DNA of 64,000 nucleotides from Candidatus Aminicenantes bacterium (GTDB lineage Bacteria; Acidobacteriota; Aminicenantia; Aminicenantales; Saccharicenantaceae): the NCBI GenBank assembly GCA_963773685.1, contig CAVZBY010000011.1, positions 661,532 through 725,531 of the forward strand. Direction: 5' to 3'. Shown piece after piece: positions 13,099 through 54,452 of the stretch. Made by a program: the position numbers and the translations under genes. The notes below the pieces were generated by a model that worked only from the letters and a program-made list of their open reading frames with translations, searched no databases and was not told where the DNA came from. Position 1 is the first letter of the stretch; each line of letters opens with the position of its first letter.

Positions 13099-13463
13099 GG
13101 CGCTGCCGAATCCGTCCTTGACGCCGGGGTCCGGGGCTTTCCGAGGCATGTTTTTCAAGGAGCTTGAGCGGATTTTGCGCAAGCTACCGCCGATGGCAAA
13201 ATCCGTCTATCTCGATTGTGAAGAAATACCTAAGCTTTTGCGAAGACGACAAACCAAGTGGCTTTGATTATATCCGAAGCCGGGCGCAAAATCGAACGGT
13301 TTGTCATTATCGTCGTCCGGGGGAATCTTAGCCTTCCCCCCCTGGGGCCGCAATCGTCCGGGAGGATGAATCCCGGGGTGAAAATTGCCCCTCGCCCCTC
13401 ACCTATAGGGGTGAGGTCGCGAAAGGTCCCGCCGCCCCGGGGATCCCGGCACGGGTCCGGGCT

Positions 13464-13493
13464 TTGACAACCGGGCCCTGAGGGGGATATAAA
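13464..13493 (+). promoter_or_regulatory. Sigma70-like promoter TTGACA-N18-TATAAA
   Basis: ttgaca at 13464-13469 and tataaa at 13488-13493, just upstream of the 13503 ORF. Confidence 0.5.
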
Positions 13494-13502
13494 TAACCCG
13501 TA

Positions 13503-14471
13503 ATGGAGGCCCCCCAGATGGATACCGTGTGCGTTCCGGCGATCGGAAAGATCTCCCGTCTCCTCGTCGCGGCCCTTCCCGCTATCCTCGCCGCGGCGGT
13601 GGGACTTGCGGCGGCCCAGGCGATCGATCCTTTCTACCTCAGGCTTTTCGAGGGCGGCGAAGCCGCGTTCGTCTCCGGAGACCACGCCAAATCCGTCAAG
13701 GATCTGGAGGTGGCCGTTTTTGGGCTGGCCTCCGACAGGGCCCGCTCGGCCCGGGCGTGCGTCTATCTCGCCCTGAGCCACGCCTCTCTGAAGAACGCCG
13801 AAAAGAGCGAACAGTTCCTGCGGCGGGCCGTCGGGCTCATCGGAGATGCCGACCCCGGTTCCCTGGGACTGGCCGAAGGGGCCCTGAACGCCTTTGAAAG
13901 GCTTCGCGAAAAGCTGCCGCCTGAAGCCGAAGCCGGGAGCGAAGAGAAGACCCTCCCGGCGTGGGAAAAGCCAAAGGAACCCGCCCCGCCCCCCGTCGCG
14001 AGACCCGTTGTCGATCCCGCTCAGGTCAAGGAATTGGAGGGCCGTCTCGGGAAGGAGCCGGATAACGACCGGCTTCGCCTCGATCTCGCGTCCCTGTACG
14101 TGAGCCGGAGAGACTTTCGCAAGGCCAACAAGCTCATGCGGGATCTCCTGAAAAGGGACCCCGAAGAGCTGATGGCGACCTACCATCTCTCCCGGGTCCT
14201 GTACTTCCAGAAGGACTACAGGAAGGCCCTCGAAGGATTCCACAAGATCATCGGTCCCGCCTCGGAAGAGAAGATCACGCGGGACGCCGTCCTCCGCTCG
14301 ACCCTCTACACCGCCCTGTGCTTGAACGCCCTCGGGCAGAAGGACAGCAGGGATTCCTACATGAATTACCTCGACCGGAACGTCCCGTTGGCCGAGCTCA
14401 AGCGGCTTGTCGCCGAAGAAGGCCTTCAGGCAGAATGGGAGAAGCTCTCCGACGGCCGCGAACCGTCCTGA
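13503..14471 (+). CDS. TPR-repeat protein with N-terminal signal/anchor
   Basis: 322-aa ORF with a hydrophobic N-terminus (LLVAALPAILAAAVGLAAAQA), a Pro-rich linker and TPR-like helices (LASLYVSRRDFRKANKLMRDLLKRDP...YHLSRVLYFQKDYRKALEGF). The 424-aa minus ORF 13230..14504 is its shadow. Confidence 0.7.
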   Translation: MEAPQMDTVCVPAIGKISRLLVAALPAILAAAVGLAAAQAIDPFYLRLFEGGEAAFVSGDHAKSVKDLEVAVFGLASDRARSARACVYLALSHASLKNAEKSEQFLRRAVGLIGDADPGSLGLAEGALNAFERLREKLPPEAEAGSEEKTLPAWEKPKEPAPPPVARPVVDPAQVKELEGRLGKEPDNDRLRLDLASLYVSRRDFRKANKLMRDLLKRDPEELMATYHLSRVLYFQKDYRKALEGFHKIIGPASEEKITRDAVLRSTLYTALCLNALGQKDSRDSYMNYLDRNVPLAELKRLVAEEGLQAEWEKLSDGREPS

Positions 14472-15412
14472 TGGAGGGGGGACCAATGGCAGAAAAGGAC
14501 CCAAAAGACATGGCCTATCTCCTGATGACCGTGGCTTATAATGAGGAACGGCAGATCGCCCAGGCCATCGAGTGCGTTCTCGGACAATCCGTCCTTCCCC
14601 GGCGGTGGTTCATCGTCAGCGACGGTTCCACGGATGGGACCGACCGGATCATCCAAGGCTACGCGCAGAAGTTTCCCTGGGTCCGGTACGAAAGGCTGGA
14701 AAAGGTCCCGGGAAAGATCCCCACCCTCGGAAAGGCCTCCTTCGCCTATGCGCGGGCCTGGGAGCACGTCCGCAAGCTCCTCGGAGGCCTCGATTATGAT
14801 TTCTTCGGGAACCTGGACGCCGATATCACGTTCGAACCCGCCTATTTCGAGAGGCTCCTGGCCATAATGAGCGCCGACGATCGGCTGGGGATCTGCGGAG
14901 GCGGGGCCTACAGTGTCCTGGAAAACGGGGAGAGCCTGGCGGGAGGATTCATTCAGCCCGATTTCGTGGGAGGGCCGGTCCAGTTCTTCAGGAAAGAATG
15001 CCTCGAGGACATCGACGGCTATCATCCTTATGATCATGCCGATGTCGTGGCCGTTACCATGGCCCGCATGAAGGGCTGGAAGGTCCGTTGTTTCCCGGAG
15101 ATCCGGGCCCTTCACCATGGACAGCCGGGGAATTCCGTCAAAGAGAAGGTCCCCATCTGTTTCCAGATGGGACAGGCCGATTACGTCGCGGGGAATTATG
15201 CTCCCTTCATCCTGGGCCGCTGTGTGCTCAGATCGTTCCACAAGCCGGTCCTTTTCGCCGGACTCTCCATGCTCGCCGGGTACCTCTGGGCCGGCCTGAG
15301 CCGGAAAGAAAGACGCATGCCCCGGGACGTCCTGGCTTATATGAGACGGGACCAGAAGCGGCAGATCCTGGTCTCGCTGGGGCTTTCCCGGACGAACCCC
15401 TATCGGATCTAG
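14471..15412 (+). CDS. Glycosyltransferase family 2
   Basis: YLLMTVAYNEERQIAQAIECVLGQSVLPRRWFIVSDGSTDGTDRII...GNLDADITF (DxD), with C-terminal TM segments. Alternative ATG at 14486. Confidence 0.85.
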   Translation: MEGGPMAEKDPKDMAYLLMTVAYNEERQIAQAIECVLGQSVLPRRWFIVSDGSTDGTDRIIQGYAQKFPWVRYERLEKVPGKIPTLGKASFAYARAWEHVRKLLGGLDYDFFGNLDADITFEPAYFERLLAIMSADDRLGICGGGAYSVLENGESLAGGFIQPDFVGGPVQFFRKECLEDIDGYHPYDHADVVAVTMARMKGWKVRCFPEIRALHHGQPGNSVKEKVPICFQMGQADYVAGNYAPFILGRCVLRSFHKPVLFAGLSMLAGYLWAGLSRKERRMPRDVLAYMRRDQKRQILVSLGLSRTNPYRI

Positions 15413-15423
15413 AGATCTCCATC

Positions 15424-16194
15424 ATGAGCCTATCCAGAGGGATCAAGGCCCTGGTCCTGGCCGGCGGCCGGGGTAAACGCCTGGGCGGATACACGGAAGA
15501 TTTCAACAAGGCCATGCTGAAATTCGGGGACAAGTACCTGATCGAATTCAGCCTCGACAGCGCCGCCGCCGTCGGGGTGGGCGAGATCGTCGTCGTCATC
15601 GGCTACCAGGGCGGACAGATCAGAGGCGCCATCGGCGATTCCTATCGAGGGATCCCGGTCAGGTACGTCGTCCAGCCGGAACAAAGGGGGGTCGTCCACG
15701 CCATCGAATGCGGCCGATCGGCGGTCGGCGATTCCGATTTTATCCTGCAGCTGGCCGACGAGTATTTCCTGAAGGCCGAGCACCCCGCCTTCCTCCGCTT
15801 CTTCCAGGAGCAGCGGGCCTTCGCCGCTTGCGGCATCGTTCATGTCGAAGATCTCCAAAGGATCCGGAAGACCTATTCCGTTCAAGGCGAGGAAACGACA
15901 AAAAGGATCACGCGCCTCATCGAAAAGCCGACGGACCCCGTCAACGACATCATGGGGACCGGAAACATCCTTTTCAAGAACGAGATCTACCATTACGTTC
16001 CCTTGACCCCGACGAACCCGCAACGGGGGGAGAAAGAGCTTCCGGACCTGATCCAGTGCGCCATCAACGACGACCAAAAGGTCCTTTACTACCCGATCGC
16101 CTCAGCCTATACCAACGTGAACACCCCGGAGGACCTCCAATTTCTGGAACGATCCTATTCGGGGCCGCACGGAGTCCGTAAGCCGGCGCCTTAG
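15424..16194 (+). CDS. Sugar-phosphate nucleotidyltransferase
   Basis: MSLSRGIKALVLAGGRGKRLGGYT...KAMLKF carries the G-x-G-x-R-L signature. Confidence 0.8.
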   Translation: MSLSRGIKALVLAGGRGKRLGGYTEDFNKAMLKFGDKYLIEFSLDSAAAVGVGEIVVVIGYQGGQIRGAIGDSYRGIPVRYVVQPEQRGVVHAIECGRSAVGDSDFILQLADEYFLKAEHPAFLRFFQEQRAFAACGIVHVEDLQRIRKTYSVQGEETTKRITRLIEKPTDPVNDIMGTGNILFKNEIYHYVPLTPTNPQRGEKELPDLIQCAINDDQKVLYYPIASAYTNVNTPEDLQFLERSYSGPHGVRKPAP

Positions 16195-16275
16195 CCGCGT
16201 ATGAAAGAGGCGTTCGTCGGACCCCGAGATCTCGATCCGACCCGGGTCGATCAGCCGCGCTGACCCGTCGATTTC

Positions 16276-16304
16276 TTGACAGGCCCGGACCCCTCCTCTA
16301 TACT
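16276..16304 (+). promoter_or_regulatory. Sigma70-like promoter TTGACA-N17-TATACT upstream of thiC
   Basis: ttgaca at 16276-16281, a 17-nt spacer, and tatact at 16299-16304. The thiC ATG is at 16331. Confidence 0.6.
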
Positions 16305-16330
16305 GAATTTTTATCCTCTGTAAGAACACC

Positions 16331-17638
16331 ATGACACAGATCGAGAAGGCTAGGAAAGGGACTCTCTCCCCCCAGTTGCGGAAGATCGCCGGGGAGGAAC
16401 GGATTGCCCCCGCCGACCTGGCCGGGCTCGTGGCCTCGGGCAAGGTCGTCATTCCCTGGAATCCCGCCCACGCACCCTCGCGTCCGGCCGGCATCGGGCA
16501 CGGTCTTCGGACCAAGGTCAACGTCAATTTGGGCACCTCCAAGGACTTCCCACGCCTCTCCGTCGAGCTCAGGAAGGTCGCCGTCAGCCTCGAGTACGGG
16601 GCGGACGCCCTCATGGACCTGAGCACGGGCGGCGACATCCGCGCGATCAGGCGGCGCATCCTCGCCGCGACGCCGCTTCCTCTCGGCACGGTCCCCATCT
16701 ACCAGGCCGCCGTCAAGGCCATCGAGGAGCGCGGAACCGTCGTCGACATCACCGAGGACGACCTCTTCGACGCCGTCGAGAGCCAGGCCCGCGAGGGCGT
16801 GGATTTCATGACCATCCACGCCGGCCTGACCCTGAAAGCCATCGACCGGCTGAAGGCGCAGGGCCGCGTGGCCGACGTCGTCTCACGGGGCGGGGCCTTC
16901 CATCTGGCCTGGATGCTCCATAACGGGAAGGAGAATCCCTTCCATGCCCGGTTCGACCGCCTCCTCGAGATCGCCCGCCGCCATGACGTGACCCTGAGCC
17001 TCGGGGACGGACTCAGGCCCGGGAGCATCATGGACGCCACGGACCGTCCCCAGATCGAAGAGCTCCTGACCCTGGGCGAGCTCGTGAAGCGGGCCCTCGA
17101 AGCGGGCGTTCAGGTCATGGTCGAGGGGCCGGGCCACGTCCCGCTGGACCAGATCGAAATGAACGTCAAGCTCCAGAAGCGCGTCTGCCACGAGGCCCCG
17201 TTCTACGTCCTCGGGCCCCTCGTCACGGACATCGCTCCCGGGTACGACCATATCGTCGCGGCCATCGGCGGGGCCATCGCCGCCGCCGCCGGCGCCGATT
17301 TCCTGTGCTATGTCACGCCCTCGGAACATCTGGGCCTCCCCTCCGTCGACGACGTCCAGGAGGGGCTCGTGGCCTCGAGGATCGCCGCCCACGCCGCCGA
17401 CATCGTCAAGAACGTCCCAGGGGCGAGGGAAAGGGACCTCGAGCTCTCCCGGGCCAGGAAGCGGCTCGATTGGGAGGGCCAGAAAGCGCTCGCCATCGAT
17501 CCCCGCAAGTTCGGCGTCGTTCGGCGGGAACGGAAGACCAGGACGAAGGCCTGCTCCATGTGCGGGGACTTCTGCGCGATGCGCATCGTCTCCGAGTTCC
17601 TGGACCCCGCGGGGAAGGCCGATGTCGCCTGCTCCTGA
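16331..17638 (+). CDS. thiC: Phosphomethylpyrimidine synthase ThiC
   Basis: Intact 435 aa: ...VNVNLGTS...[13 protein letters not shown]...DFMTIHAG...VSRGGA...[10 protein letters not shown]...[11 protein letters not shown]...[20 protein letters not shown]...[14 protein letters not shown]...CSMCGDFCA. Confidence 0.95.
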
Positions 17639-37372: not shown

Positions 37373-38276
37373 TTATTCCTGCTGCCGGGGCTTGAGCTTG
37401 CTCAGCGATTCCTTGAGCCAGGTGACATATTCGGGCCGCTGGATCAGGCTCTCGACCCGAAAGACCCTGATGCCCGCCAGCCTGCCTTCGTTGACCTTGG
37501 CGACGAAGAAATCCATCAGTCCCTTGAACTCCTGTTCGGTCAGCCACCGATGTTCACTGCCCGCGTCGAGATACAGGGATCCCAGGATCGGCTTCCCCGG
37601 GAATTTGTCCAACACCCGGGCGAGCAGCTGTTCGTGGTTCTGGAGCTCTTTCGTGTCGTAGAAGCTGAAGATGATCGCGTCGATGTCGAAATCGTACGGC
37701 TTGTCCAGATCGGCCGGCGGGTAGCAGGGGGCCCAGATCGCCAGGCGCGGATTGATGGCCTTGGCCTGGGCGATGATGCGGCGGAATTCGTCGGCGGAAT
37801 GGCCTCCCTCGGCGGGCTTCTCCGTCTCTTCGTAGAAGTCGTTGAGGTACAGGCCGATGATCTGCTTGTGGGTGAGCGACAGCTCCGCGATCCAGGCCGC
37901 GTGCCGCATGGCCTGGTCGAACGTCCATCCCCAGATGCCCCGTCTCGATCTTGGCGATGATGTACTTGACGCCCGGCGTGTTCATGTGCCGGTACATCAG
38001 GGTGTCCTCGAGCTTCATCGTCCCGTCATAAGGCTTGTCGTGAGTCCAGACCGTGTTGAACCCGACCTCCTTGACCATCGGAGCGATGTCCACCTTGGAG
38101 CTGTGCTCCCAGACGGAGATCAGGGGCTCGGCAGGGAAGTCGATCGCGTCGGTCGCGAGCACAGGGGCGACGCACACCACCGATAGGATCCCGGCCGCGA
38201 GCGCCGATCGCAGAATGCCCCTCGGCAACGCGAACCTTCCGGTCTGAAGCATCGATCGATCACGGGTTCTTGACAT
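37373..38276 (-). CDS. Secreted hypothetical protein, possibly glycoside-hydrolase-like TIM barrel (frame break near 37925)
   Basis: SD GGAGGT before the ATG at 38276. MSRTRDRSMLQTGRFALPRGILRSALAAGILSVVCVAPVLA looks like a Tat/Sec signal. The C-terminal piece is ORF 37373..37909. The functional guess is weak. Confidence 0.5.
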
Positions 38277-40708: not shown

Positions 40709-40752
40709 GAGAGTAGCCCTGGGGGGACTCGAACCCCCGACCTGCGGATTAG
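40709..40752. repeat. Island left boundary: 44-bp perfect direct repeat (attL-like), a displaced 3' portion of tRNA-Arg
   Basis: gagagtagccctggggggactcgaacccccgacctgcggattag is identical to 54373-54416. Similarity extends to 40759/54423 with 2 mismatches. No D-arm or 5' acceptor follows, so this is a tRNA fragment. Confidence 0.9.
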
Positions 40753-40817
40753 AAATCTGAACAGGCTCAACGCTAATGGCTTAAGAATGAATGTGTTATG
40801 GGGATGGCGGTCGCAAT

Positions 40818-40836
40818 GATGGCCGAATTATTGCCA
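40818..40836. repeat. 19-nt direct repeat, left copy (gatggccgaattattgcca)
   Basis: Identical to 54249-54267. Both copies lie just inside the island ends. Confidence 0.8.
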
Positions 40837-41156: not shown

Positions 41157-42482
41157 TTACACAACAGTCAGAAACGGGGCTTTCTCCCCTTCGTTGTCCT
41201 GCGTGGAAACTTGATAATTATCCCAGCCCTCTGACTTGTCTTTGCTCGAGGTCGTCCCAATTCTGTAGTACAGCTTGTCAGATGCCGTGGACAACTTTTC
41301 CCAGACCGGACCGGGCAATTTGTATGACGGGCCGGTGAAGCGCTCACTGTCATTGTATGATCCGTAGAAGTTCTCTTCGGTTCGTTGGGAACCATTAGCC
41401 ACGTAATCGAACAACTCCGGTCCATTACAGATCTCGAAGATATAGTATTTGTTCGCGCCCGTCACGACCGAAAAAGACGGCGGGTCATCTGCACCTGGCC
41501 ATGTGGTCGGCCCCTTAACGGATGGCCCCGTAGGCGTCGTGGAACTCGTCGCAATTTCGAATGGTCTTTGGCTCTCAAACCCGGGATCGGCGACGCCGAC
41601 GACGAAATAGTTTGGCGTTTGAGTCGGTGGCATTCTACGACAAATCTCCGTATGCAACTTGCGATAGTCTCCCGAGAAGTTCCCGTGGTCCCAAACCTCC
41701 AGTAGCTTCTCAGTGAATAAGCCATTGTTAATCCCGTCTGAGGACAACTGATTATCCTGGCAACCGGAGATCAACACGAGCGAAGCTTGAAGAGGCGTGG
41801 CGCGTCCGCGTGGAACCATCCACTGTGCAGCATCGTACAGGTCCTTATGCCTCAAGTACGCGGCCATGGACTCGGCCGGCGTCAGTGCTCGGAATCGAGG
41901 GGGCTGTTCCTTGATCGCTCTAGCTTTCCTCATAGGATCAGTCCCTCCGAAGAACAAGGTGTAGTTATCATGCAAAGAAACAAAGAATTCTTTCGGTCGC
42001 GGCGTCCCAGTCGTAGTCGGAGCAAATGTCGGAGTTCTTCCCGGCAGTAGCAATATGGACTTGAGAACCGTACCGCTGTGACAACTATCCGAGAGTGCTA
42101 ATATGCGCACACCAGCGCCAAACTGCGACCACAGTTGAGATAACTCATCGTCTATCAGCATTCGATCATACAGGCACCAAGTTTCGTCATAGCCATCATC
42201 CTCATCCCCGTTCGCGTCCGGCACCTGTCCTCCGTGCCCGGAGTAGGTGAGAAAGAGCATATCACCTGCCCCGAGTACTTTTGCAGCTTTGCCGATTTCC
42301 TGGACCACACGGCTATAAGTTGCATCATAAGTCAGTATTATGGTCGATGTGTACCCCAAAGAATCAGCCAACTCTTTCATTGATATGGCGTCGTTTTCAC
42401 ACCCGGCCAAAAGACCATCGACGCCATAGGAGGCTTTATCAATGAGGTTCAGACCTATGTGGATGGATATTCCTTTTATCAT
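41157..42482 (-). CDS. Caspase-like (peptidase C14) protease with an unknown ~250-aa C-terminal region
   Basis: SD AAGGAG before the ATG. IHIGLN...GCENDAISM...MLFLTYSGHGGQVPD...VRILALSDSCHSGTV gives the His (SGHG) and Cys (DSCHSG) dyad in canonical order and spacing. Confidence 0.8.
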   Translation of the reverse strand: MIKGISIHIGLNLIDKASYGVDGLLAGCENDAISMKELADSLGYTSTIILTYDATYSRVVQEIGKAAKVLGAGDMLFLTYSGHGGQVPDANGDEDDGYDETWCLYDRMLIDDELSQLWSQFGAGVRILALSDSCHSGTVLKSILLLPGRTPTFAPTTTGTPRPKEFFVSLHDNYTLFFGGTDPMRKARAIKEQPPRFRALTPAESMAAYLRHKDLYDAAQWMVPRGRATPLQASLVLISGCQDNQLSSDGINNGLFTEKLLEVWDHGNFSGDYRKLHTEICRRMPPTQTPNYFVVGVADPGFESQRPFEIATSSTTPTGPSVKGPTTWPGADDPPSFSVVTGANKYYIFEICNGPELFDYVANGSQRTEENFYGSYNDSERFTGPSYKLPGPVWEKLSTASDKLYYRIGTTSSKDKSEGWDNYQVSTQDNEGEKAPFLTVV

Positions 42483-42564
42483 AGTGTATCTCCTTCTTTC
42501 AGAATGTCTGTGTTCGTCACCAAGTAACTTGGTGGCAACTGCTCTTTGCCGCGTAATTGCGGGC

Positions 42565-43746
42565 TCACTGTATGGTCTCCCATTCGAGACTAACTACGTT
42601 GCCGTTCTTCTTAAGGTCCAAAGACCTCCACGATCCGAACTGTTGTAGCCCCGCGCAATCGATTCTGGTAACCTGATATACGAGGGTGCGGTTTGCCTGG
42701 TATGTTGTGAGAGGTAGCACCAGATCGACCGCCGTCACTGGTGCAAGGTCGTTCACTTCGGCACGATGTACGTCGGGCAGATCATTCAGCCGCGCCGCGA
42801 TCTGGAGCGATTTAAGTCCGCGGTTCCCTAGATTAATTAGATTGACGAAAACAACATTCGTCGCGATATCTTCGATTGCATTTCTCAGTTCAGGGAGAGT
42901 CGTGCCACCACCACTGACGAGAGCGTATACTGGGATGACAGTCGTGGTCCCGTCCGGCACACCCACGTCAATTGATCCGCCAGCCATCACGGTGGCTTCC
43001 ACAGGTGCCCTGACAGCGGTGCCCCCAGCAATCGCATATATCTCTCGTATATTGACGGCCCCGATGAGGTTGTCCGTAAGGGAACTCCCAGGGGTCACGT
43101 TCGCACTCTGGCCCGTACCTGAGGGGCCAGGGATTCTGTTGATGAGCCGGGCGGATGCTCCTTGAACCATGACTTCAATCGGACCGGCTTCCCACGGGCC
43201 AACCACTGTCTGAAGGTCGAGAATTATCGAACCTCGAAGCGTCGTCTGATCGGGCAAGCGTGTCACGATATCACACGCAATTCCCGTGAACTCGATCATC
43301 TTCTGAAGCAAGGGCACGTCTTCCAGCTTTGAAATCAAACTCACCTGAAAGCCGTCCCAGAGCTTCGTCACCTCGACTGTAATCTCAGATTGTGCCATCC
43401 CGGCAATTGCCCAATCATACGAGGCGTCACCGGGGATCTCAGTCAGAAAGTCGATCACTGGGTCCATCGCATACGATGTAAGCTTAGTCCTTAGTTCGTA
43501 CCGGACAAAGAGAGGCATGTCTGGCTGGACCGTCGCGAGAAGAACCGCCTTATTGTTGGTCGGTGTTTCAGGATCGACCGTAGAGTACAGGCAAATCGCC
43601 GCACGGTACGATCGGTCCCCATCGTTCGGACCAAAACGGGCTATGCGGTAGGTCCGAGGTACGACCAAAAAACGCCCAGGTTGTTGTAAGGACCGGTATA
43701 CCGTGTAAAGGTCGCTCTGCAGGAACGTCATCCTTAATCTCTTCAT
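42565..43746 (-). CDS. Hypothetical protein (~393 aa), operon gene 3
   Basis: The ATG (MKRLRMTFLQ...) lies in an ATGA context at 43743-43746. Its N-terminus carries the motif FLVVPRTYRIARFGPNDGD, shared with the 573-aa protein. It overlaps the tail of ORF 43568..46090. Confidence 0.65.
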   Translation of the reverse strand: MKRLRMTFLQSDLYTVYRSLQQPGRFLVVPRTYRIARFGPNDGDRSYRAAICLYSTVDPETPTNNKAVLLATVQPDMPLFVRYELRTKLTSYAMDPVIDFLTEIPGDASYDWAIAGMAQSEITVEVTKLWDGFQVSLISKLEDVPLLQKMIEFTGIACDIVTRLPDQTTLRGSIILDLQTVVGPWEAGPIEVMVQGASARLINRIPGPSGTGQSANVTPGSSLTDNLIGAVNIREIYAIAGGTAVRAPVEATVMAGGSIDVGVPDGTTTVIPVYALVSGGGTTLPELRNAIEDIATNVVFVNLINLGNRGLKSLQIAARLNDLPDVHRAEVNDLAPVTAVDLVLPLTTYQANRTLVYQVTRIDCAGLQQFGSWRSLDLKKNGNVVSLEWETIQ

Positions 43747-46090
43747 ACTGGCGGAAAGTCGTTTGGCCCAGGCGAAAAGCATCCTGACAGCCGACCGCAA
43801 CAGCACCCTGGTCGGTCTCCTGTCTATAGAGAGCACCAAGGGTGTTACATGGGTAGAGGATCTCTGTCGACTGTTGGCGCCCCATTATCTGAACTGCATA
43901 TGAGGTCAGACGCAGTCGATCGGCAACGACTGCCGTGAGGTTCAATTGTGGACTCACCGCAATGACAGGGTGTATGGAAACATATTGGCCGGTTGCCAGC
44001 GCAACTGTCGACGCTGGCCCCTGGGCAGCAGAAGCTTCCGAAGGGCGCTCGCTCGTTCCCGAAGCCGGAACTTCCCGGTTGTAGTGAAGGGTAACAGCAG
44101 GATGACAGTAAGAGACCGACTCGGCGTCAACAAAGGTGCGGCCATCAAGGTCGTGAGCCTGGGCAGCCGAGAAGGCTACCGGCGTAACAGCCTCCTTGCC
44201 CCCATGTGCCACAAGTAGGCTGAGCCTGGGGACAGCAACGTAGGCTTTGAAAGAATAGCTCGTTACAAGCCTGGCTGGCTCCGTCTGGTACCCAGGATAG
44301 GCCAACGCTCCATAGCAGGCACGGGCCCAATCATCGATGAGGTACAGGGTGACTACTGCCGTCTCACCCAGTCGCTCAAGAGTCGTCGGGAAAGACTGGA
44401 TTCGCGTGGCGCCGGCCGCGTCTCTGAAGGGCAAAACGAATTGAACTGACAGGCCATCAACAGCAACAGGCGACGCTTTCACCGATCCTAGCCGTTTCAG
44501 GGCTTCGGCTGTCGGAGTCGACATTGCGGGACGGAGAGTGAATCGGATTGTCGTCTCGATACCGGGTTGGCCGGACGCCGTGTGTCCCTTCTGGCGGAAG
44601 GAATATAGAAAGGGGCTATTCTCGGAATCACTGTTCGGCGACGGGAGTACCGGCTCAAAACTCGGCGCATACCAATATTTGCCGTTCGTAATTCGATCCT
44701 TCCAGATTGGCGAAGACGGTTCGTCCACTACCGGAAGACTCTGATCGACCCCGTGGGCCCCAGGCAGAGAACTCGGGCGATCGATGACGACTTCGTTTGA
44801 AGTAAAGTGGTGCAGGTTCGGCGCCACCTGAATAGTCTGCGCTACATGTCCACCCGAAACAAGCGCCGAGGCCGGAACGACAGCATTGCGCCCAGGCGTC
44901 ATTTTGGACCTCAGTGTCCGGTAGCCGTTTCCGTCTGCCGCCAGCTCAATGGATCGTGGACGAACGGTCGACTTTATACCAATCGAAGGCAAAGAACGCA
45001 GCCTGCGTGGTGCAGGCTCGAAGCCCGCAGTTTGCGAGTCCACGCACACCAAGCGAATATGTGAATCCGTCGGTCGGCCGCGCAACGAATCGCCGAAGAT
45101 CCGATCAAGCGAAGTCTCCATTTCGAGAGTGCGTTCGCCCACGCGCGCGATGTCCTGCTCAAAAGCAAGGGCAAATGCACTGCCCGGACGCCGCTTCAGC
45201 CTGTAGCAATTCTGAGGGGAGGCCGGTTCCAGTTCGGGAGTGAGACACTCAATAATAACCGAGGCGGCCCTTCGAAAAGGCGTCACTAACTGGTCTATGT
45301 CAATCGCCCTTTCTGCCTCCTGGCTGCCATCAGGATTCAAAACATGGTACTGAACCACCTTCGCGTCAATGAGATCGCGGAGCATTGTGCCAACGTCTGT
45401 GAGTGTCAGAGGAGCATCCGCATCGAGATGATCCGAAACCCAATCAGAGATCCAATCGAAAATCTCCTGCCAGATGCCGGAGACCTGGACTCTCTGAGTG
45501 ACTGCCGCCGTCCGGAACTGAACGTGACAGCGGACCTTGAGACGCGAAGGAACTCCGGAAAGAGCGGCGACGACCTCCACGGTGTTTTCCCGATCCAGCT
45601 GTGCCTGCAGAGAGGCGCGAGGTGCGATTCCTTCAGAGAGAATGGGGCCGGAGAGAATATCTCCTTCGAATCCCACAAGTGTAAAGGTCGCCGGTCGGAC
45701 GTAAATCGGACGATAGCTCTCAAGGGAGTCTGCGTCGGCGCCGGTAAGAGCACTCGACTCAGGGATAACCCATCCAACTGAGAGCGTTAGAACACCCTGC
45801 TGGATGAGATGGTGAATGGAGCTCTCTTCGGGCAACGGTCGGCGGCTAAGCATGATGGTGAGTGACAGGATAGGTGTTCCCACGCTATCGCAGCACAGCG
45901 CCGGAACACCGGGGAGAACGTGGAACAACCCGGGACGGGACGCGACCGCAAGGCTCTGGTTCATCTCGTCCGGCAGCACTAGTACCGTGAGCATCTGAAT
46001 GCTTCCGGTCTTCAGTTCCCGCACCTCCCATGGGGCACTGCCGGACGGGCCACAGCGGTCACGCTCTGCCAAAACGATACGCCTCTCCAC
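43568..46090 (-). CDS. Hypothetical large protein (up to 840 aa), operon gene 2; true stop probably near 43743
   Basis: Long uninterrupted ORF. The 46090 start is GTG without an obvious SD, and an alternative ATG exists at 45994 (MLTVLVLPDE...). The last ~55 codons overlap gene 3 out of frame and look non-coding. Confidence 0.65.
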   Translation of the reverse strand: MERRIVLAERDRCGPSGSAPWEVRELKTGSIQMLTVLVLPDEMNQSLAVASRPGLFHVLPGVPALCCDSVGTPILSLTIMLSRRPLPEESSIHHLIQQGVLTLSVGWVIPESSALTGADADSLESYRPIYVRPATFTLVGFEGDILSGPILSEGIAPRASLQAQLDRENTVEVVAALSGVPSRLKVRCHVQFRTAAVTQRVQVSGIWQEIFDWISDWVSDHLDADAPLTLTDVGTMLRDLIDAKVVQYHVLNPDGSQEAERAIDIDQLVTPFRRAASVIIECLTPELEPASPQNCYRLKRRPGSAFALAFEQDIARVGERTLEMETSLDRIFGDSLRGRPTDSHIRLVCVDSQTAGFEPAPRRLRSLPSIGIKSTVRPRSIELAADGNGYRTLRSKMTPGRNAVVPASALVSGGHVAQTIQVAPNLHHFTSNEVVIDRPSSLPGAHGVDQSLPVVDEPSSPIWKDRITNGKYWYAPSFEPVLPSPNSDSENSPFLYSFRQKGHTASGQPGIETTIRFTLRPAMSTPTAEALKRLGSVKASPVAVDGLSVQFVLPFRDAAGATRIQSFPTTLERLGETAVVTLYLIDDWARACYGALAYPGYQTEPARLVTSYSFKAYVAVPRLSLLVAHGGKEAVTPVAFSAAQAHDLDGRTFVDAESVSYCHPAVTLHYNREVPASGTSERPSEASAAQGPASTVALATGQYVSIHPVIAVSPQLNLTAVVADRLRLTSYAVQIMGRQQSTEILYPCNTLGALYRQETDQGAVAVGCQDAFRLGQTTFRQYEEIKDDVPAERPLHGIPVLTTTWAFFGRTSDLPHSPFWSERWGPIVPCGDLPVLYGRS

Positions 46091-46177
46091 TCAACGCGAC
46101 GCGAGAGCCAAACCCTTGGAAACCAAATCTCACCTTTATCACCAAATCACGTCGTCAGATATAACGACGCGCGCCTA

Positions 46178-46903
46178 TTATGTTTTCCCGCGCTTGCCGG
46201 TTTCAGCCCGCTTGGCCGGCGGAACGACGGATACCGCGGGCCCCGTACTTTTGCTCTTCCCTTCCGCAGAGGCAGTCCGAGTTGGCGGAGTCACTTCAAA
46301 CCCACTGATCTCAATAGCCCGAGCGGCAGCCTCCTCCTGCGGCAGTGCTCGCGAACTGGGCGGAACCTCATTGCCACCGGAGGTCACGGGCGGTGGCGTC
46401 GCCGAAGCATCTGTCGATATCCGCGTGGGGAGCAAGAAGTCCTTCAGTTCTAGAGAACGGTTCTTAACCTCTTTGTCACTCGGTCGCGGAACTTGCACTA
46501 CAAGCGGTCCATTTCCATTCGATTCGACCCATTCTCCGGTCCATTCCTGTCCACCCGTAAACAGGCCGCCTTTTACCACAACCCTCACCTGGTATTTAAA
46601 CTTGGGTATGAAATCGAGCTGACCCGTAAAGATCGTCCAAAAACGCGGCTCATCCTGATCGGCAAAACTCCAGACAAACTTGGTAATCGGTCGATCTGCG
46701 CCGTCCCCGGTCTTTCCAAGGCACTGGAACGACACCTCAACCATCTGCTTTGCGTCTTCAAGGACAACGCCGAGCGTCACGGGACCGACAGACAGTTTGC
46801 CGGCAGAGTCGGCACGAACCTCTATCGCATTTTCATTGGTGAGAACGTCCGTTTGGGTCGGGATCAAGATCGAGTATATTCTTTTCCACGAAGCAGCGGG
46901 CAT
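46178..46903 (-). CDS. Hypothetical; probably the C-terminal continuation of the 573-aa ORF across a frame break near 46840-46850
   Basis: Coding-looking from ...IPTQTDVLTNENAIEVRADSAGKLSVGPVTLGVVLED... to a Pro/Ser/Thr-rich, Lys/Arg-terminated tail. No SD precedes the only internal ATG (46903). Confidence 0.5.
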   Translation of the reverse strand: MPAASWKRIYSILIPTQTDVLTNENAIEVRADSAGKLSVGPVTLGVVLEDAKQMVEVSFQCLGKTGDGADRPITKFVWSFADQDEPRFWTIFTGQLDFIPKFKYQVRVVVKGGLFTGGQEWTGEWVESNGNGPLVVQVPRPSDKEVKNRSLELKDFLLPTRISTDASATPPPVTSGGNEVPPSSRALPQEEAAARAIEISGFEVTPPTRTASAEGKSKSTGPAVSVVPPAKRAETGKRGKT

Positions 46904-48554
46904 GCGGATAGGCAAGTTCGTCAGGAGGTTCTGCGAAATGAATTTGCCTTTTAATGAATGTCTGATCGGGGGTCCAGCCGGCAGGTGGGTTTTCCACATG
47001 TGCCTGGTCCTTCTTTTCCTCTGACCAGGTCCAGGCAGCATCGGCCGGATCGGTTGCCTGGAACACATGGGCTTTCCACTGGATATCCCCCTTGGTGCTC
47101 GGATACCCGACCTGAGCCGACAAAAACGCCACTGGCTCGCCAATCCATTTGCGACTTGGATCAGGCCAGTTGACCACCGGCTTGACAATCCGACTGTTCT
47201 TACGGTCCCAATCACTCAGATACAGAGTGCTGAAATACTTGTTTTCAGCTTGAGGATCGGCCTTGATATCATTGTAGAAGCCTTCAAGAGTGCCGCTCAC
47301 AACTGTGTCCTGCAAATATGCCATTTCGCGCGTTTCATCGTATTCGAGGTTAAGATGGGTCTCGTCTCTGCGATACTTCAGGGCCATACCTACTCCCCAC
47401 GGACCAGACCCGCTGCTAGCCTTCGCAGGCTCGACATTGGGAGCCGGCGGTTCGAAGATCATCTTCTGCGCTGCCTCCATGAATTTCTGATAAACAAGGT
47501 CCGTCTTCTTGTCGATGTCCTGCTGCATTTTTTCGGCGCCCGGAATAGTAGGATCGATTTCCACAACGACCTTCATTATGCCCTTAGTGCGCATATTGTT
47601 GATCTCGACTTTAATGTCGGCAGAGGCCCATAGATAGTGACCAGACATCGCCGACGAGAAGTGGCTGAAAATCTTGTCCCACTCCCCGGTGATCTTAATG
47701 TGGACAAGAGGAGCCCAGAACTTGATTTTCATGTCCTGTCGAACCACCATCGCGCTGTAGGTGCCGTGAAAGCTTGCCCATAGAAGCGCAGCCGGCAAAC
47801 TGCCGACTAACCCGGAGAAAGCGTTTTCAGCAAGCAGGTCAATCGAACCTGCCCCCTGACCCTGGAGATTTACGTACCACGGGTCCAAATTCGTGCCGGC
47901 GGTATCCCGCGTGAGCGGAACAGAACGCGGGAATTTCATGGCGGGTGAGGCCAATGGTGTCAGATTGAATGACCGCATCACCGCAATGTCGGCGCCCCGA
48001 GGCGGGGCAGGTGGTGCCGCAGACCCCGGTGTCACGCCCGACCCGGCAAGGGCCGTGGAGGTGCCCATAGGAGAGTTGATTGTCGGCACGGAGCCGTTGG
48101 GAAGCGGCGACAAGTTGGTCAGCAACGTCACGTTTGATACGACCGGCATCGGTCTGAACATAGGGCGCGCACTAGTGCGCCATCCCCAGTACTTGTCGTT
48201 ATCTCCCCGAAAGATCTCGGCCAGCTGATCCTCAGCCGTTTTGAGAACGTCCGGTGGCGGCGCAGCCGTCGTCGAGAAGCTAATGACCCCCCCGGCTACC
48301 TCGCGCTCTCCGGCCACTCCAACTGTGCTGTTCTCACTCTGAACGCCGACAAAGTGGATCATTCGAAACTTGAAGTCGCCATTGCCCCCGTGGCGAGCCA
48401 ACCGAACGTAGTTAGGCATCCAATAGTATACCGGTGGTTTGCCTTGCCGCTGTAAATCGTCATTGTGAAGATCGGGGAGATATAGCATCTCATATCCAGC
48501 CATAGCAATATGCTGGAATCCCCCTGCGAAGATCGGTCCTACTGGGTCAGCCAT
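46833..48554 (-). CDS. Hypothetical large protein (573 aa as read; ~790 aa if joined to 46178..46903), operon gene 1
   Basis: SD AGGAGG 7 nt before the ATG at 48554. MADPVGPIFAGGFQH...PPVYYWMPNYVRLARHGGNGDFKFRMIHF.... No family recognised. Confidence 0.7.
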   Translation of the reverse strand: MADPVGPIFAGGFQHIAMAGYEMLYLPDLHNDDLQRQGKPPVYYWMPNYVRLARHGGNGDFKFRMIHFVGVQSENSTVGVAGEREVAGGVISFSTTAAPPPDVLKTAEDQLAEIFRGDNDKYWGWRTSARPMFRPMPVVSNVTLLTNLSPLPNGSVPTINSPMGTSTALAGSGVTPGSAAPPAPPRGADIAVMRSFNLTPLASPAMKFPRSVPLTRDTAGTNLDPWYVNLQGQGAGSIDLLAENAFSGLVGSLPAALLWASFHGTYSAMVVRQDMKIKFWAPLVHIKITGEWDKIFSHFSSAMSGHYLWASADIKVEINNMRTKGIMKVVVEIDPTIPGAEKMQQDIDKKTDLVYQKFMEAAQKMIFEPPAPNVEPAKASSGSGPWGVGMALKYRRDETHLNLEYDETREMAYLQDTVVSGTLEGFYNDIKADPQAENKYFSTLYLSDWDRKNSRIVKPVVNWPDPSRKWIGEPVAFLSAQVGYPSTKGDIQWKAHVFQATDPADAAWTWSEEKKDQAHVENPPAGWTPDQTFIKRQIHFAEPPDELAYPHARCFVEKNILDLDPDPNGRSHQ

Positions 48555-48793
48555 AAGTTACCTCCTATTAATAGGAAATTCGATATACATAATGCCAAGA
48601 TCCCTATTAAGTCAGGGCCGGAACAATGCGCGCGTTTCATTTATCCTGCCCTTATAATTTTTAGCTATGAGGAAAGTGAAAAAAACAATATTTTTGCCAT
48701 AAAAGACTCAACTAACCCTCCCCCGACCAACTAAATATGGAAACTCGCCTACACAAAGTCAACATCCGAGCCGGCGTCTCCGCGTATTTCAAA

Positions 48794-48831: not shown

Positions 48832-49554
48832 ATGAAATATGTAAGGGAATTATCAGGGATCAGATTAACGTCGGGTATCACCGGCTATAGAATTCTGGAA
48901 GAAATGATACTTGATAAGTTCGACCCGGCGAAGCCATTCTACTCACTCGTCCTAGCCTACCTGTGCCAAGTCCACGGATTGGCGGAACTGATCTCTCGTG
49001 GGTTCTATCGGGAGTTCGAGACGTTCATACAAAAAGTGCGGCCCGCAGCTCACATATCCCGAAAGCAACTAATCGCGCTCTTCCTGGCTAATATGAGTGA
49101 GGTGATCCGGGATGACGCTGAACAAACTCTCTTGGGCGGGACAACCATTTTGTTGCTTCCACTGGAGATGCAGGCATGGAGTGGAGAGGGCCTCAAGTGG
49201 GACGCGGCTGAGTTGGCCGACACGGTATTCTCGGACAAGTACAACGCGACCCTTCGGTACTTCAACCGCCTTACCGCCGGGAGCCTACTCGTAATGGCGT
49301 GGGAGCACGTGAAGCCGAAGCATCGACGCGACCCGGTCGCCCAGTTCCTTAGGCACTGCCGGAATGCGGCTGCCCATAACGGAGTATTCACTTTTAACCA
49401 CGGGCAACCAGATAAACCGGCTGAGTGGCACGGTATCAAGATTGTTCGGGCCTTGGAAGGCTCACCCCTGTTCGTCGATCCGCCGCGAAAGGGGTTTCTC
49501 GGCCCTGGTGACGCAGTTTACTTGCTGGCCGACATCGAAAAGAAGTTAATGTAA
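48832..49554 (+). CDS. HEPN-motif protein (Abi_2/AbiD-like guess), putative RNase
   Basis: Mostly helical 240 aa with ...VAQFLRHCRNAAAHNGVF..., where R-N-A-A-A-H matches the HEPN Rx4-6H motif. Confidence 0.55.
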   Translation: MKYVRELSGIRLTSGITGYRILEEMILDKFDPAKPFYSLVLAYLCQVHGLAELISRGFYREFETFIQKVRPAAHISRKQLIALFLANMSEVIRDDAEQTLLGGTTILLLPLEMQAWSGEGLKWDAAELADTVFSDKYNATLRYFNRLTAGSLLVMAWEHVKPKHRRDPVAQFLRHCRNAAAHNGVFTFNHGQPDKPAEWHGIKIVRALEGSPLFVDPPRKGFLGPGDAVYLLADIEKKLM

Positions 49555-50499: not shown

Positions 50500-51387
50500 G
50501 GCCCGCCGAGGAGCGGGACCTGGTGTTCGTCATGAGGACGTCCTACCAGGTCTCTGAGCGGCGGGCGTGTCGAGCTTTGAGACTCCCCCGATCGACGATC
50601 CGGCACAAGAGCATGGCAGACCCTCAGACGGCGCTTCGCATGCGACTGAGGGATCTCGCCATGTCACGGGTTGGCTATGGCTATCGACGGCTCCAGGTCC
50701 TGATCGAGCGGGAAGGATGGCACGTGAATCACAAGCGGGTTTATCGCTTGTATCGTGAGGAAGGCTTGGCCATGAGGCGGAGACCTTCCAGGCGGCGCAA
50801 GGCCTGCCTGAAGAGGGAGCTGCGGCCTCTGGCCGCGGAAAAGAACGAATGTTGGAGCATGGACTTCATGTCGGACGAGCTCTTCGACGGCCAGAGGATT
50901 CGGCTTTTAGCGCTAGTCGACAATCATACCCGTGAAAGTCTGGCGATCCATGTGGGCCAGAGGATCCGGGGCTGCTGAGGTGGTCCAGGTCTTGGAGCGG
51001 GTCATGAAGGGTCACGGCCGGCCGCTGACGATACGGGTGGACAACGGCCCGGAATTTATCTCTAAAGACGTCGATCTCTGGGCTTACTGGAACCACGTCA
51101 GCTTGGACTTCTCCCGTCCGGGGAAGCCGATGGACAACGCTTATATCGAGTCCTTCAACGGCCGGTTCCGGCAGGAATGCCTCAACGAGCACTGGTTCCT
51201 AAGCTTGGATGATGCCCGGGACAAGGTCGAAGCTTGGCGGCGGGACTACAACGAAGAACGCCCCCACAGCGCTCTCGGCAACGCGACCCCGGAGGAATAC
51301 GCGGCTCATGTCGAGTCTCGAAAAGGGCTTCCGGACCAAGAGCTCGCAGCGGCAGAAAAAGAACTTGCTTATTCAATAAGTTGCTGA
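50487..51387 (+). pseudogene. IS3-family transposase OrfB (rve/DDE), frame break near 50960
   Basis: The -1 frame from AAAAAAG reads KKVLRPAEERDLVFVMRTSYQVSERRACRAL...NECWSMDFMSD...LLALVDNHTRESLAIHVGQRIRG, then after a shift AEVVQVLERV...IRVDNGPEFISK...NAYIESFNGRFRQECLN...YNEERPHSALG. Confidence 0.8.
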
Positions 51388-51859: not shown

Positions 51860-53011
51860 ATGTCTGAAGTTGTGTTTATTCTAGGTGCTGGCGCCTCTGC
51901 TCATACCGGAGCCCCGGTTATGAGCGCTTTTTTTAACACAGTTTGTGATCTCTATGAGGATGGAAAGATTAGTGTTGAAGACAAAGAGGCCTTTTCGCTG
52001 ATAAGGGATGCCAAGAGGGATCTAGAGAGAATTTTAGTCAAGGTCGACTTGGACTTGCATAATCTGGAAACCCTTTTTTCCCTTATAGAAATGGGGAGGC
52101 TTATAGGCGTCTTCCCTGGAAGTATACCGATAGAAATATTGCATAAGGCCATACAAAGAGTGATAGTCCGAACGATAGAACTGAAAACCAACTGCTATTT
52201 TGTGCCATGTGATGACGACGCATATTGCTTACTCCTTAGAGAACTTAAGTCGCTCTGGGGCCAACGAAACATATGGCGTAGTTCAATAATCACATTTAAT
52301 TATGATGTTGCGATTGACCTTGCGGTGGAACGTAACGTAGGAGCCATTGACTATTGCCTTCATGAGAAACCGGACAATTCGCCCTGCGGCTACAAATTAT
52401 TGAAGCTTCATGGTTCGTTCAATTGGGCCAAATATAAAGAGAACAATCAGAGCGGAGTTATTCCAGTCTCCGTTAATAGGTTTGTTAATGAGTATTTTCA
52501 ACAACGGGAAGAACGGAAAATGATAACCACCGCAGATTTGCCCATTAAGGTAGCAGATAGATTAAATAATACCTTTCAGATTGATGTGGGGTCCAAGATC
52601 AATAGACTAAGAGCGAACTTCTACTCGGGATATGAAGTGGACTTGCTTGATGATTCTCCATTAATAGTCCCTCCTACGTGGAGTAAAACGGAATACCACA
52701 CAATTTTGAAAAGCGTCTGGGCGCAAGCAGCAAAAGAAATATCTGAGGCAAAGTACATTATCATTATCGGGTATTCTCTTCCCCCAAGTGATCTCTTTTT
52801 TCAATATCTTTTAGCTTTAGGGATGCTTGATATCCACCGCATAAAAGCTTTCTGGGTTATTGATCCAGCCGAGGCTACCATAAAGAGGTACAGGGAATTT
52901 ATCGGAGATCCCATAAAAGCGGCATTCCGCGAGTCCCCACAAGCCTTTAATCACTTTGCAGTCAAGCAAATCCATCAGTTCTTTGAATCGAATGGTCTAA
53001 TCGAATCGTGA
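51860..53011 (+). CDS. SIR2-like (SIR2_2-type) protein, putative NAD+-consuming defence effector
   Basis: SD AGGAGG. VVFILGAGASAHTGAP (Rossmann), SSIITFNYDVAIDLAVE (conserved Asn), YKLLKLHGSFNW (conserved His) and YIIIIGYSLPPSDLFFQYLL. Confidence 0.75.
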   Translation: MSEVVFILGAGASAHTGAPVMSAFFNTVCDLYEDGKISVEDKEAFSLIRDAKRDLERILVKVDLDLHNLETLFSLIEMGRLIGVFPGSIPIEILHKAIQRVIVRTIELKTNCYFVPCDDDAYCLLLRELKSLWGQRNIWRSSIITFNYDVAIDLAVERNVGAIDYCLHEKPDNSPCGYKLLKLHGSFNWAKYKENNQSGVIPVSVNRFVNEYFQQREERKMITTADLPIKVADRLNNTFQIDVGSKINRLRANFYSGYEVDLLDDSPLIVPPTWSKTEYHTILKSVWAQAAKEISEAKYIIIIGYSLPPSDLFFQYLLALGMLDIHRIKAFWVIDPAEATIKRYREFIGDPIKAAFRESPQAFNHFAVKQIHQFFESNGLIES

Positions 53012-54248: not shown

Positions 54249-54267
54249 GATGGCCGAATTATTGCCA
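54249..54267. repeat. 19-nt direct repeat, right copy (gatggccgaattattgcca)
   Basis: Identical to 40818-40836. Confidence 0.8.
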
Positions 54268-54372: not shown

Positions 54373-54416
54373 GAGAGTAGCCCTGGGGGGACTCGAACCC
54401 CCGACCTGCGGATTAG
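54373..54416. repeat. Island right boundary: 44-bp perfect direct repeat (attR-like) overlapping the 3' part of tRNA-Arg
   Basis: Identical to 40709-40752. Covers 5 nt beyond the tRNA 3' end, the acceptor 3' strand, the T-arm, the variable loop and the 3' anticodon stem, up to the anticodon. Confidence 0.9.
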
Positions 54417-54452
54417 GAATCCGTCGCTCTATCCATACTGAGCTACAGGGCT
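54378..54452 (-). tRNA. tRNA-Arg (anticodon CCT)
   Basis: Hand-folded 75 nt: AGCCCTG TA GCTC AGTATGGATA GAGC G ACGGA TTCCTAA TCCGC AGGTC GGGGG TTCGAGT CCCCC CAGGGCT A. The 7-bp acceptor, D and T stems are all paired. There is one A.C pair in the anticodon stem. No encoded CCA. Confidence 0.9.

Follow-up and report, generated by a model that had tools for sequence, protein, structure and literature searches.

Introduction

Protease-gated death effectors, such as the gasdermins, Pepco, EACC1, and MBL nucleases, are increasingly recognized as a main principle of immunity in prokaryotes and have parallels in animal pyroptosis. Swapping of the protease class, activation by cleavage of a C-terminal tail, and fusions with peptidoglycan (PG)-binding domains have all been documented for protease-effector modules (PMC12642450). 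Pepco is a protein of 117 amino acids (aa), whose C-terminal tail is rich in Pro and charged residues and is clipped by the adjacent protease, which activates a pore; for Pepco systems, PG-binding domains fused to the protease have been reported. EACC1 is also small. Modules of both types employ proteases of the C14, S1, or S8 classes and usually come with an attached sensor, e.g., STAND or Avs (Kaur et al., 2020, PMC7159879; Evans et al., 2025, PMC12642450). Here, we describe a three-gene operon from a Candidatus Aminicenantes bacterium, which codes for two large proteins without described family, called A (791 aa) and B (1168 aa), and for a caspase-like protease of 441 aa carrying a module-specific C-terminal domain called X. 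The operon is located in a window of 64,000 nucleotides (nt) (positions 661,532 to 725,531 of the forward strand of contig CAVZBY010000011.1, assembly GCA_963773685.1), and all coordinates given without further label refer to this whole window.

By analogy, the module would work most like the known protease-effector modules, with which it is grouped because its protease class is swappable, one partner bears a tail, and PG-binding fusions occur. Such an analogy had already been drawn in a preliminary description of this DNA, and appears reasonable in view of the exchange of C14 for S8 proteases, as in known modules, and of the existence of B-protease fusions. The bacterial gasdermin operons, which employ caspase-like, CHAT, trypsin-like, or subtilase proteases, share with it a protease gene adjoining a non-enzymatic partner, an interchangeable protease class, a self-contained mobile organization, a removable C-terminal extension of the partner, and a predicted membrane damage. 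However, neither A nor B matches gasdermins in Pfam or among the top 50 Foldseek matches of the whole chains in the PDB, both are 3-5 times larger than bacterial gasdermins, and they form a paralogous pair with arrays of immunoglobulin (Ig)-like domains. The module protease also lacks the repeat or NTPase sensors of the proteases from gasdermin operons and has X, PG-binding, or M15 domains in their place. Pepco/Trypco and EACC1 modules resemble the operon in the disordered tail of the partner, in their C14 and S8 protease classes, and in their PG-binding fusions, but show no detectable similarity to A or B, which are of very different size, and no sensor of the STAND or Avs type is present here. 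The NCBIfam model caspase_w_EACC1 scores only 18.9 bits with the window protease against a cut-off of 140 bits, and from PADLOC only the generic "caspase" hidden Markov model (HMM) PDLC02987 matches it (E 1.3e-8), while no system of PADLOC-DB v2 is recognized. As judged from these searches for the defining partner families, the module is not a gasdermin, Pepco/EACC1, or PADLOC system. Compared to the metacaspases and orthocaspases (MEROPS C14, PF00656) in general, its protease is distinguished by the extra X domain and by A and B, which are always encoded upstream, and in ~29% of the loci a subtilase of family S8 with the same X domain takes the place of the C14 enzyme.

What is new about the module is the nature of the partners, two huge paralogous proteins without described family or assignable fold, in a compact and self-contained set of three genes (~7.4 kb). 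The triad appears to be undescribed, as no description of it was found in the full-text literature within the limited set of papers searchable. It contains three orphan domain families, namely the module shared by A and B, the rest of B, and X, and assigning a role to them would provide a function for several hundred protein clusters.

Conservation and Distribution of the Module

Relatives of A were identified by profile in 111 of ~185,579 species-representative genomes. From this search 80 loci were kept, 71 of which extend far enough for an analysis of synteny, with open reading frames (ORFs) called by a simple longest-ORF rule. The order A, then B, then protease is found in 70 of these 71 loci, and the co-occurrence of the large proteins with a protease in other genomes, which the preliminary description had proposed as a test, is thereby borne out. 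The only exception is Amycolatopsis xylanica (L012), where a DUF6345 protein follows directly after B in place of the protease. The module spans at least 12 bacterial phyla, including Chloroflexota, Actinomycetota, Bacteroidota, Acidobacteriota, Gemmatimonadota, Planctomycetota, Myxococcota, Verrucomicrobiota, Armatimonadota, Pseudomonadota, and Desulfobacterota, as well as two archaeal metagenome-assembled genomes (MAGs) affiliated with Methanosarcina (L033) and Methanotrichaceae (L037), whose S8 proteins have very close bacterial counterparts (E = 0 to those of L042 and L039). It is also carried by a 447-kb plasmid of Deinococcus, where RefSeq lists A and B as "hypothetical protein" and the third gene product as "caspase family protein". 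The three genes travel together as a self-contained, horizontally mobile module. Clustering of all flanking ORFs of the 80 loci did not reveal a conserved fourth gene; PrsW, considered as a candidate partner, occurs near two loci and is not recurrent. DUF6345 proteins (~500-550 aa, with a weak thermolysin-propeptide-like motif) follow the module in two Amycolatopsis loci (L012:15052-16554 and L003:16851-18494).

No relatives of A were detected among 2.9 million viral contigs of IMG/VR or in 50,697 GenBank phage records, A and B do not match any PHROG, and no conserved phage genes surround the module. These results largely refute an origin as a structural or lysis module of a phage, consisting of capsid or tail proteins, a maturation protease, and an endolysin, and we regard such an origin as extremely improbable. 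It would be in line with a leaderless protease which resembles endolysins in its PG-binding and M15 domains, with the long hairpins and Ig-like decorations of the partners, and with very weak Foldseek matches to viral glycoproteins and tail proteins, but all of the viral matches have template modeling (TM) scores of 0.11 or less. Holin-endolysin cassettes also contain leaderless PG-binding or M15 proteins which depend on a membrane lesion made by a partner to reach the wall; the module described here differs from them in lacking a small transmembrane holin, in the absence of transmembrane helices from A and B, in not being found in phages, and in encoding an enzyme that is primarily an endoprotease.

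Gene Organization and Integrity of the Window Copy

The module is represented in the window by five collinear ORFs of the minus strand (46833-48554, 46178-47215, 43568-46090, 42565-43839, and 41157-42482), which, together with the Shine-Dalgarno sites AGGAGG before the first and AAGGAG before the last gene, are located as the preliminary description had given them. They constitute an operon of three genes, namely A, B, and the gene for the caspase-like protease. The large proteins derive from two genes rather than from three as counted before, because tblastn matches of intact Caldilinea proteins run through the frame change in both large genes and because the corrected lengths agree with independent gene calls. 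All homologues of the 573-aa ORF are 750-850 aa long, and deletion of one T at ~46844/5 connects it to its ~225-aa continuation, yielding a 791-aa A protein exactly as in P0274; that these two pieces make up one protein had been guessed correctly. Deletion of one C at ~43721/2 yields a B protein of 1168 aa, which comprises both of the ORFs of ~840 and ~393 aa that had been taken for separate proteins. The start of B is placed at the TTG codon at 46072, a position deduced from the length of this gene in an independent assembly.

This independent assembly, a contig from run ERR12035931 that is the source of P0274, shows gene calls of 791, 1168, and 441 aa. In another run (ERR15459707), B is open over 942 aa across the frameshift site and adjoins an identical caspase, and the exact 441-aa caspase protein is also present in NCBI, ENA, and Logan records. 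The two frameshifts are very probably homopolymer errors in the consensus of the assembly, and the module copy of the window is probably intact. The opposite view, that the frameshifts are real and that a decaying pseudogene cluster is carried as non-functional cargo of a degenerate island, may refer to the number of frameshifts (two in 7.4 kb), to a split transposase ORF in the same island, and to the apparent absence of an integrase gene from the island. However, both changes are +1 insertions in two-base homopolymers, whose removal restores the sequence of A and the length of B in the independent gene calls, and the identity to these calls is 100% for the remainder of A and the complete caspase, so that the window copy and the calls stem from the same population. 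We consider decay to be quite unlikely, and it would concern only the window copy, not the nature of the module.

The Protease and Its Accessory Domains

The 441-aa protein matches Pfam Peptidase_C14 (PF00656) over residues 24-292 with an E-value of 3.8e-23 (82.8 bits vs. a cut-off of 21.4 bits), and His83 and Cys134 are unchanged in all 47 aligned C14 proteins linked to the module. The C14 assignment and His/Cys dyad put forward in the preliminary description are thus confirmed: by profile and motifs, the third gene product is a bona fide member of the C14 metacaspase/orthocaspase family, and it looks like an active endoprotease. Among 67 typed third genes, 47 code for a Peptidase_C14 and 20 for a Peptidase_S8 subtilase; counted by locus, C14 proteases are present in 50, S8 proteases in 19, and both in one. 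The latter locus (L043, from a deltaproteobacterial MAG) carries C14 and S8 protease genes at 10514-11878 and 13272-16589, both after A and B, and may represent an intermediate in the swap of the protease class.

The C14 and S8 versions share the X domain, which is present in one to two copies in the former and in one to three copies in the latter, with the consensus ...APTFxV..G...YYAVEVAT...LF......NFYASW......Y.LP...W.RL.....LYYR......W.N...S.....AP.I. It occurs only in the third genes of the module or in a small extra ORF following some of the S8 genes, and has no relative in Pfam or in a profile search of the PDB sequences. In four loci of the S8 type, an ORF of 288-327 aa located directly after the protease gene carries one further X domain. 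Additional domains among the 67 proteases are PG_binding_1 (22 cases), PG_binding_3 (12), Peptidase_M15_3 (10), and, more rarely, M15_2 (two) and a glycoside-hydrolase-like domain (one). The most common architectures are C14 with X (23), C14 with X and a PG-binding domain (12), C14 with a PG-binding domain but without X (11, mostly from Actinomycetota), S8 with X and M15 (11), and S8 with X (8), and 65 of the 67 typed proteases contain an X or a PG-binding domain. This link of the protease gene family to the cell wall (PG_binding_1/3, Peptidase_M15) had been missed in the preliminary description. No signal peptide was recognized in the module proteases. Fusions of B with the protease are represented by P0133 (B-S8, 2127 aa) and P0255 (B-C14, 1454 aa).

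Proteins A and B Represent a Paralogous Pair

The lack of a known family for the large proteins, as reported before, is upheld by empty searches in Pfam, PADLOC, NCBIfam, and PHROGs, and 46 diverse members of the A and B families scanned singly against Pfam also gave nothing at E <= 0.1. Profile searches of the PDB sequences with A and B were equally negative. At least 460 homologues of A of 750-850 aa without a Pfam domain are available. For B, word-indexed homologue searches gave only six proteins, even with a profile, and an exhaustive search of representatives gave 654 representative clusters at 50% identity. In agreement with the earlier statement that the large proteins contain no transmembrane helix, hydropathy scans do not indicate one in A, B, or the protease (maximum Kyte-Doolittle mean over 19 residues below 1.5), and neither a signal peptide nor a transmembrane segment is found in any of the three module proteins. 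As judged from sequence profiles, A and B are paralogous in an N-terminal module of ~300-400 residues, because residues 30-424 of A align with residues 28-324 of B in hhalign (probability 95.5%, E 1.6e-8) and because the HMM of B matches every A as well.

In A, this N-terminal module is highly conserved and is followed by Ig-like beta-sandwich domains and by a disordered Pro-rich C-terminal tail of ~100 aa. The AlphaFold2 model of an intact A (P0002, alignment of 57 sequences; mean predicted local distance difference test (pLDDT) 76.8) starts with an alpha/beta subdomain and a disordered Pro/Gly-rich linker (~150-205), continues with strands (248-289, 292-315, and 369-406) that are very long and amphipathic and surround a helix of 28 residues, and ends with beta-sandwich domains (430-685) and the disordered tail of ~100 residues. 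In B, disordered linkers come after the paralogous module, along with a series of Ig-like domains; the C-terminal half matches strings of Ig-like domains in Foldseek, although the underlying model is of low confidence (pLDDT 60). Foldseek searches with whole chains (A model vs. PDB and viral libraries, B model vs. PDB) gave no fold for the shared module, the matches being limited to Ig-like proteins at TM scores of 0.14 or less. A fold of A or B derived from these matches was rejected, as they consist of low-scoring Ig-like, adhesin, and complement proteins, with class-III viral glycoproteins appearing weakly.

Across 47 genomes, the mean pairwise identity amounts to 48% for A, 29% for B, and 43% for the C14 protease. 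In each genome pair the identity of A exceeds that of B, and across phyla A retains 45-67% identity. B evolves fast, and its divergence correlates with that of the protease (Spearman 0.68) to a larger extent than with that of A (0.36), which suggests that B co-evolves with the protease.

A class-specific signature of a cleavage site in A was sought and rejected, as C14- and S8-linked A proteins differ at only one discriminating column; a conserved Arg-Asp in the linker of A (150-215) is present in both groups, and the same comparison for the B linker was uninformative. Arg occurs at position +1 after the tail motif described below in 13 of 53 C14-linked and 2 of 31 S8-linked contexts, no more than a hint at a P1 specificity.

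A Short Motif in the Tail of A Accompanies the X Domain

The tails of A are otherwise variable, and carry short motifs of the type V/I-x-G-[WYF]-x-hydrophobic, often followed by Pro and often with one copy at the extreme C-terminus, e.g., EVAGWRVD or DPEGWVNT. In 53 tails from loci with X domains, 93 of 176 aromatic residues are preceded by Gly, while composition-preserving shuffles yield 19.5 ± 4.2 (maximum of 33 in 2000 shuffles). In the 13 loci without X, the value is 3 of 26, compared to 3.3 expected. The motif is present in 48 and absent in 5 loci with X, and present in 3 and absent in 10 loci without X (Fisher p = 3e-6, 66 loci), and the number of motifs increases with the copy number of X (rho 0.55); note that these statistics ignore phylogeny and that 10 of the 13 X-less loci are from Actinomycetota of few related genera. 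The window locus fits the pattern with one motif and one X domain. We infer from these correlations that the X domain may dock on the V-x-G-[WYF] motifs of the A tail.

In the same 10 actinomycetotal X-less loci, A ends in [FY]-x-x-[YH]-x-[LV]-COOH instead of the G-aromatic motifs. In such X-less variants, in which PG_binding_1 is present, the PG-binding domain may read the C-terminus of the A tail.

Possible Function of the Module

We tentatively favor the possibility that the module represents a protease-licensed effector made of A and B, which breaches the cell envelope. A and B would then form a latent two-component effector, and the protease would be recruited by docking of its X domain(s) on the V-x-G-[WYF] motifs in the disordered tail of A and would also be tied to B, with which it apparently co-evolves and is sometimes fused. 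Cleavage of A, B, or both would license the complex to breach the envelope, whereupon the leaderless protease could reach the peptidoglycan with its domains for wall binding and wall cleavage. This might end in lysis and death of the cell or in killing during a conflict, with abortive infection as the leading candidate, and the fast-evolving B would be the likely sensing or regulatory part. In its architecture, such an effector would recall the beta-pore-forming toxins (aerolysin, epsilon-toxin, VCC, and leukocidins) with respect to the proposed removal of a terminal peptide, the paralogous subunits, and the long amphipathic beta-hairpins predicted in A; the likeness is architectural only, as these toxins are secreted with signal peptides and are not retrieved by Foldseek as a fold match. 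The module would represent a new family of executioners or else a new type of assembly matured by a protease. The further-reaching view that A and B constitute an unrecognized superfamily of giant two-component, protease-licensed, envelope-attacking effectors in Bacteria and Archaea, with a recruitment code of X and V-x-G-aromatic motifs and built-in wall targeting, appears somewhat doubtful; if true, it would establish a new class of executioners beside gasdermins, Pepco, and EACC1 and not a variant of any of them.

Several observations weigh against an envelope-breaching effector. The conservation of A (48% mean pairwise identity across phyla) is unusually high for a defense protein. The absence of differences between C14- and S8-linked A proteins means that no cleavage site can be named, and no NTPase or repeat-type sensor is present in the module. 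The structural side is affected by the lack of a fold for the shared module, by the low confidence of the B model, and by pLDDT values below 55 at the hairpin tips of A, while the phylogenetic bias of the X-less loci bears on the docking of X, and the PG-binding domains could be sensors or could bind the alternative C-terminal motif of A. Finally, the context of the module in other genomes does not resemble the defense island that the preliminary description had seen in the window. Among 116 flank proteins of up to 1000 aa from 19 other loci, surveyed without a background control, PADLOC gave only sporadic generic matches (PD-T4-6 kinase, mad3/6, AriA, and HEC-01A, each in one to two proteins) and no enrichment of defense genes, and three contexts annotated with Pfam contain mostly transporters and regulators, along with one nSTAND-WD40 protein. 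The association with a defense island is therefore local and not general. In addition, in six loci a gene for a LuxR-type regulator lies directly upstream of A, further matches in other loci being weaker or located farther away, and the occurrence of upstream regulators in several unrelated loci hints at a regulated expression of the module.

The presence of such regulators would also suit a released or secreted proteinaceous weapon, either bacteriocin-like or a toxin for predation or against eukaryotes, with A and B as a toxin complex matured by the protease; the PG-binding and M15 domains would be directed at the cell walls of other bacteria, or would lyse the producer to set the complex free. 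Arrays of Ig-like domains, as present in B and in the C-terminal half of A, typically belong to extracellular proteins, taxa from soil and sediment with a competitive way of life carry the module, and M15 peptidoglycan peptidase domains occur even in the loci from the Methanosarcina and Methanotrichaceae MAGs, organisms whose walls do not contain murein. The archaeal loci are, however, MAG contigs with near-bacterial S8 proteins, and recent transfer or mis-binning could explain their M15 domains. The missing signal peptides and transmembrane segments also speak against secretion, and neither secretion genes nor a conserved immunity gene are found beside the module in the 80 loci; the absence of the latter fits a latent self-directed effector better than a secreted antibacterial toxin. 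A weapon of this kind is judged unlikely.

The strong conservation of A, which always exceeds that of B, is as expected for self-assembly and may also be explained by a structural or developmental role outside any conflict, with heteromers of A and B forming an envelope-associated fiber, sheath, coat, or cage which is processed by a wall-anchored maturation protease. The paralogy of A and B with their strings of Ig-like domains, the wall-binding domains of the protease, and the mostly ordinary metabolic or regulatory genes in the flanks agree with such an assembly. On the other hand, the distribution in 111 of the ~185,579 species genomes across unrelated phyla is extremely patchy, the module is borne by an island in the window and by a plasmid in Deinococcus, which points to an accessory, mobile trait, no export signal is present, and free swapping of the protease class would be unusual for a dedicated maturation enzyme. 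A structural role of the module is regarded as improbable.

The tRNA-Arg Island and Further Features

The operon of the window lies within an island of ~13.66 kb, which is bounded by 49-nt direct repeats of the 3' half of tRNA-Arg(CCT) (48 of 49 positions identical) and differs in its GC content (0.45-0.58 inside, 0.60-0.68 outside); by its repeats and deviant composition, it is a tRNA-integrated genomic island. The coordinates of all features are compiled in Table 1.

Table 1. Features of the module and its island in the window, followed by features of related loci (locus handle before the coordinates).
Feature	Position	Strand	Remarks
Gene A	46178-48554	-	791 aa after removal of one extra T; corrected translation identical to P0274
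Gene B	42565-46072	-	1168 aa after removal of one extra C
Caspase-like protease gene	41157-42482	-	441 aa; Pfam Peptidase_C14
Peptidase_C14 domain	41607-42413	-	Residues 24-292
Catalytic His83	42234-42236	-	Codon; YSGHG motif
Catalytic Cys134	42081-42083	-	Codon; DSCHSG motif
X domain	41160-41540	-	Residues ~315-441 of the window caspase; ~115-aa domain
Tail motif ISGFEV	46292-46309	-	A residues 749-754; single V/I-x-G-aromatic copy in window A; putative docking site of the X domain
Single-base insertion (TT for T)	46844-46845	-	Splits A into the 573-aa ORF and the ~225-aa continuation
Single-base insertion (CC for C)	43721-43722	-	Splits B into "840-aa" and "424-aa" ORFs
Shine-Dalgarno AGGAGG	48561-48566	-	7 nt ahead of the gene A ATG at 48554
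Shine-Dalgarno AAGGAG	42490-42495	-	Ahead of the caspase gene ATG at 42482
Promoter-like site TTGACT-17-CATATT	48734-48762	-	Consensus match only; AT-rich 277-nt region upstream of A
240-aa ORF divergent from A	48832-49554	+	CRNAAAHN (RNxxxH) motif
IS3-type transposase	50523-51387	+	Two overlapping ORFs, break inside the rve integrase core
SIR2-like gene, defense-associated type	51860-53011	+	PADLOC SIR2 E 3.7e-11; Pfam SIR2_2 E 2.2e-4, below gathering cut-off
Distal att-like repeat	40709-40757		Copy of the tRNA-Arg 3' half; left island edge
tRNA-Arg(CCT)	54377-54452	-	With proximal 49-nt repeat 54373-54421; right island edge
Second exact 19-nt repeat	40818-40836 and 54249-54267		Just inside each island end
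Extra X-domain ORFs	L028:11136-12119, L036:9166-10032, L045:19236-20192, L076:19350-20312
LuxR/GerE-type helix-turn-helix (HTH) genes	L025:3184-3831, L031:3485-4198, L060:8939-9673, L070:9099-9818, L074:9077-9850, L075:9070-10014
BTAD-domain regulator upstream of A	L085:6611-8509		Deinococcus plasmid
Alternative C-terminus of A	L060, L064, L066, L068, L072, L074, L075, L078, L081, L082

Of the tRNA-Arg defense island assumed in the preliminary description, the island itself and the SIR2-like gene are retained, the product of the latter having no relative among the PDB sequences. The HEPN identity of the 240-aa ORF is not supported by profiles and was rejected, as its RNxxxH motif stands without any match in Pfam, PADLOC, or PDB sequences. 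The two pieces of the split transposase contain HTH_21 with the N-terminal part of rve, and the C-terminal part of rve with rve_3, respectively, corresponding either to a degenerate insertion sequence or to a third indel error in the island. A 45-nt direct repeat with 71% identity connects a region of minus-strand ORFs outside the island (37484-37528) to the 3' end of the SIR2-like gene (52943-52987), and may be due to chance or to a remote paralogue.

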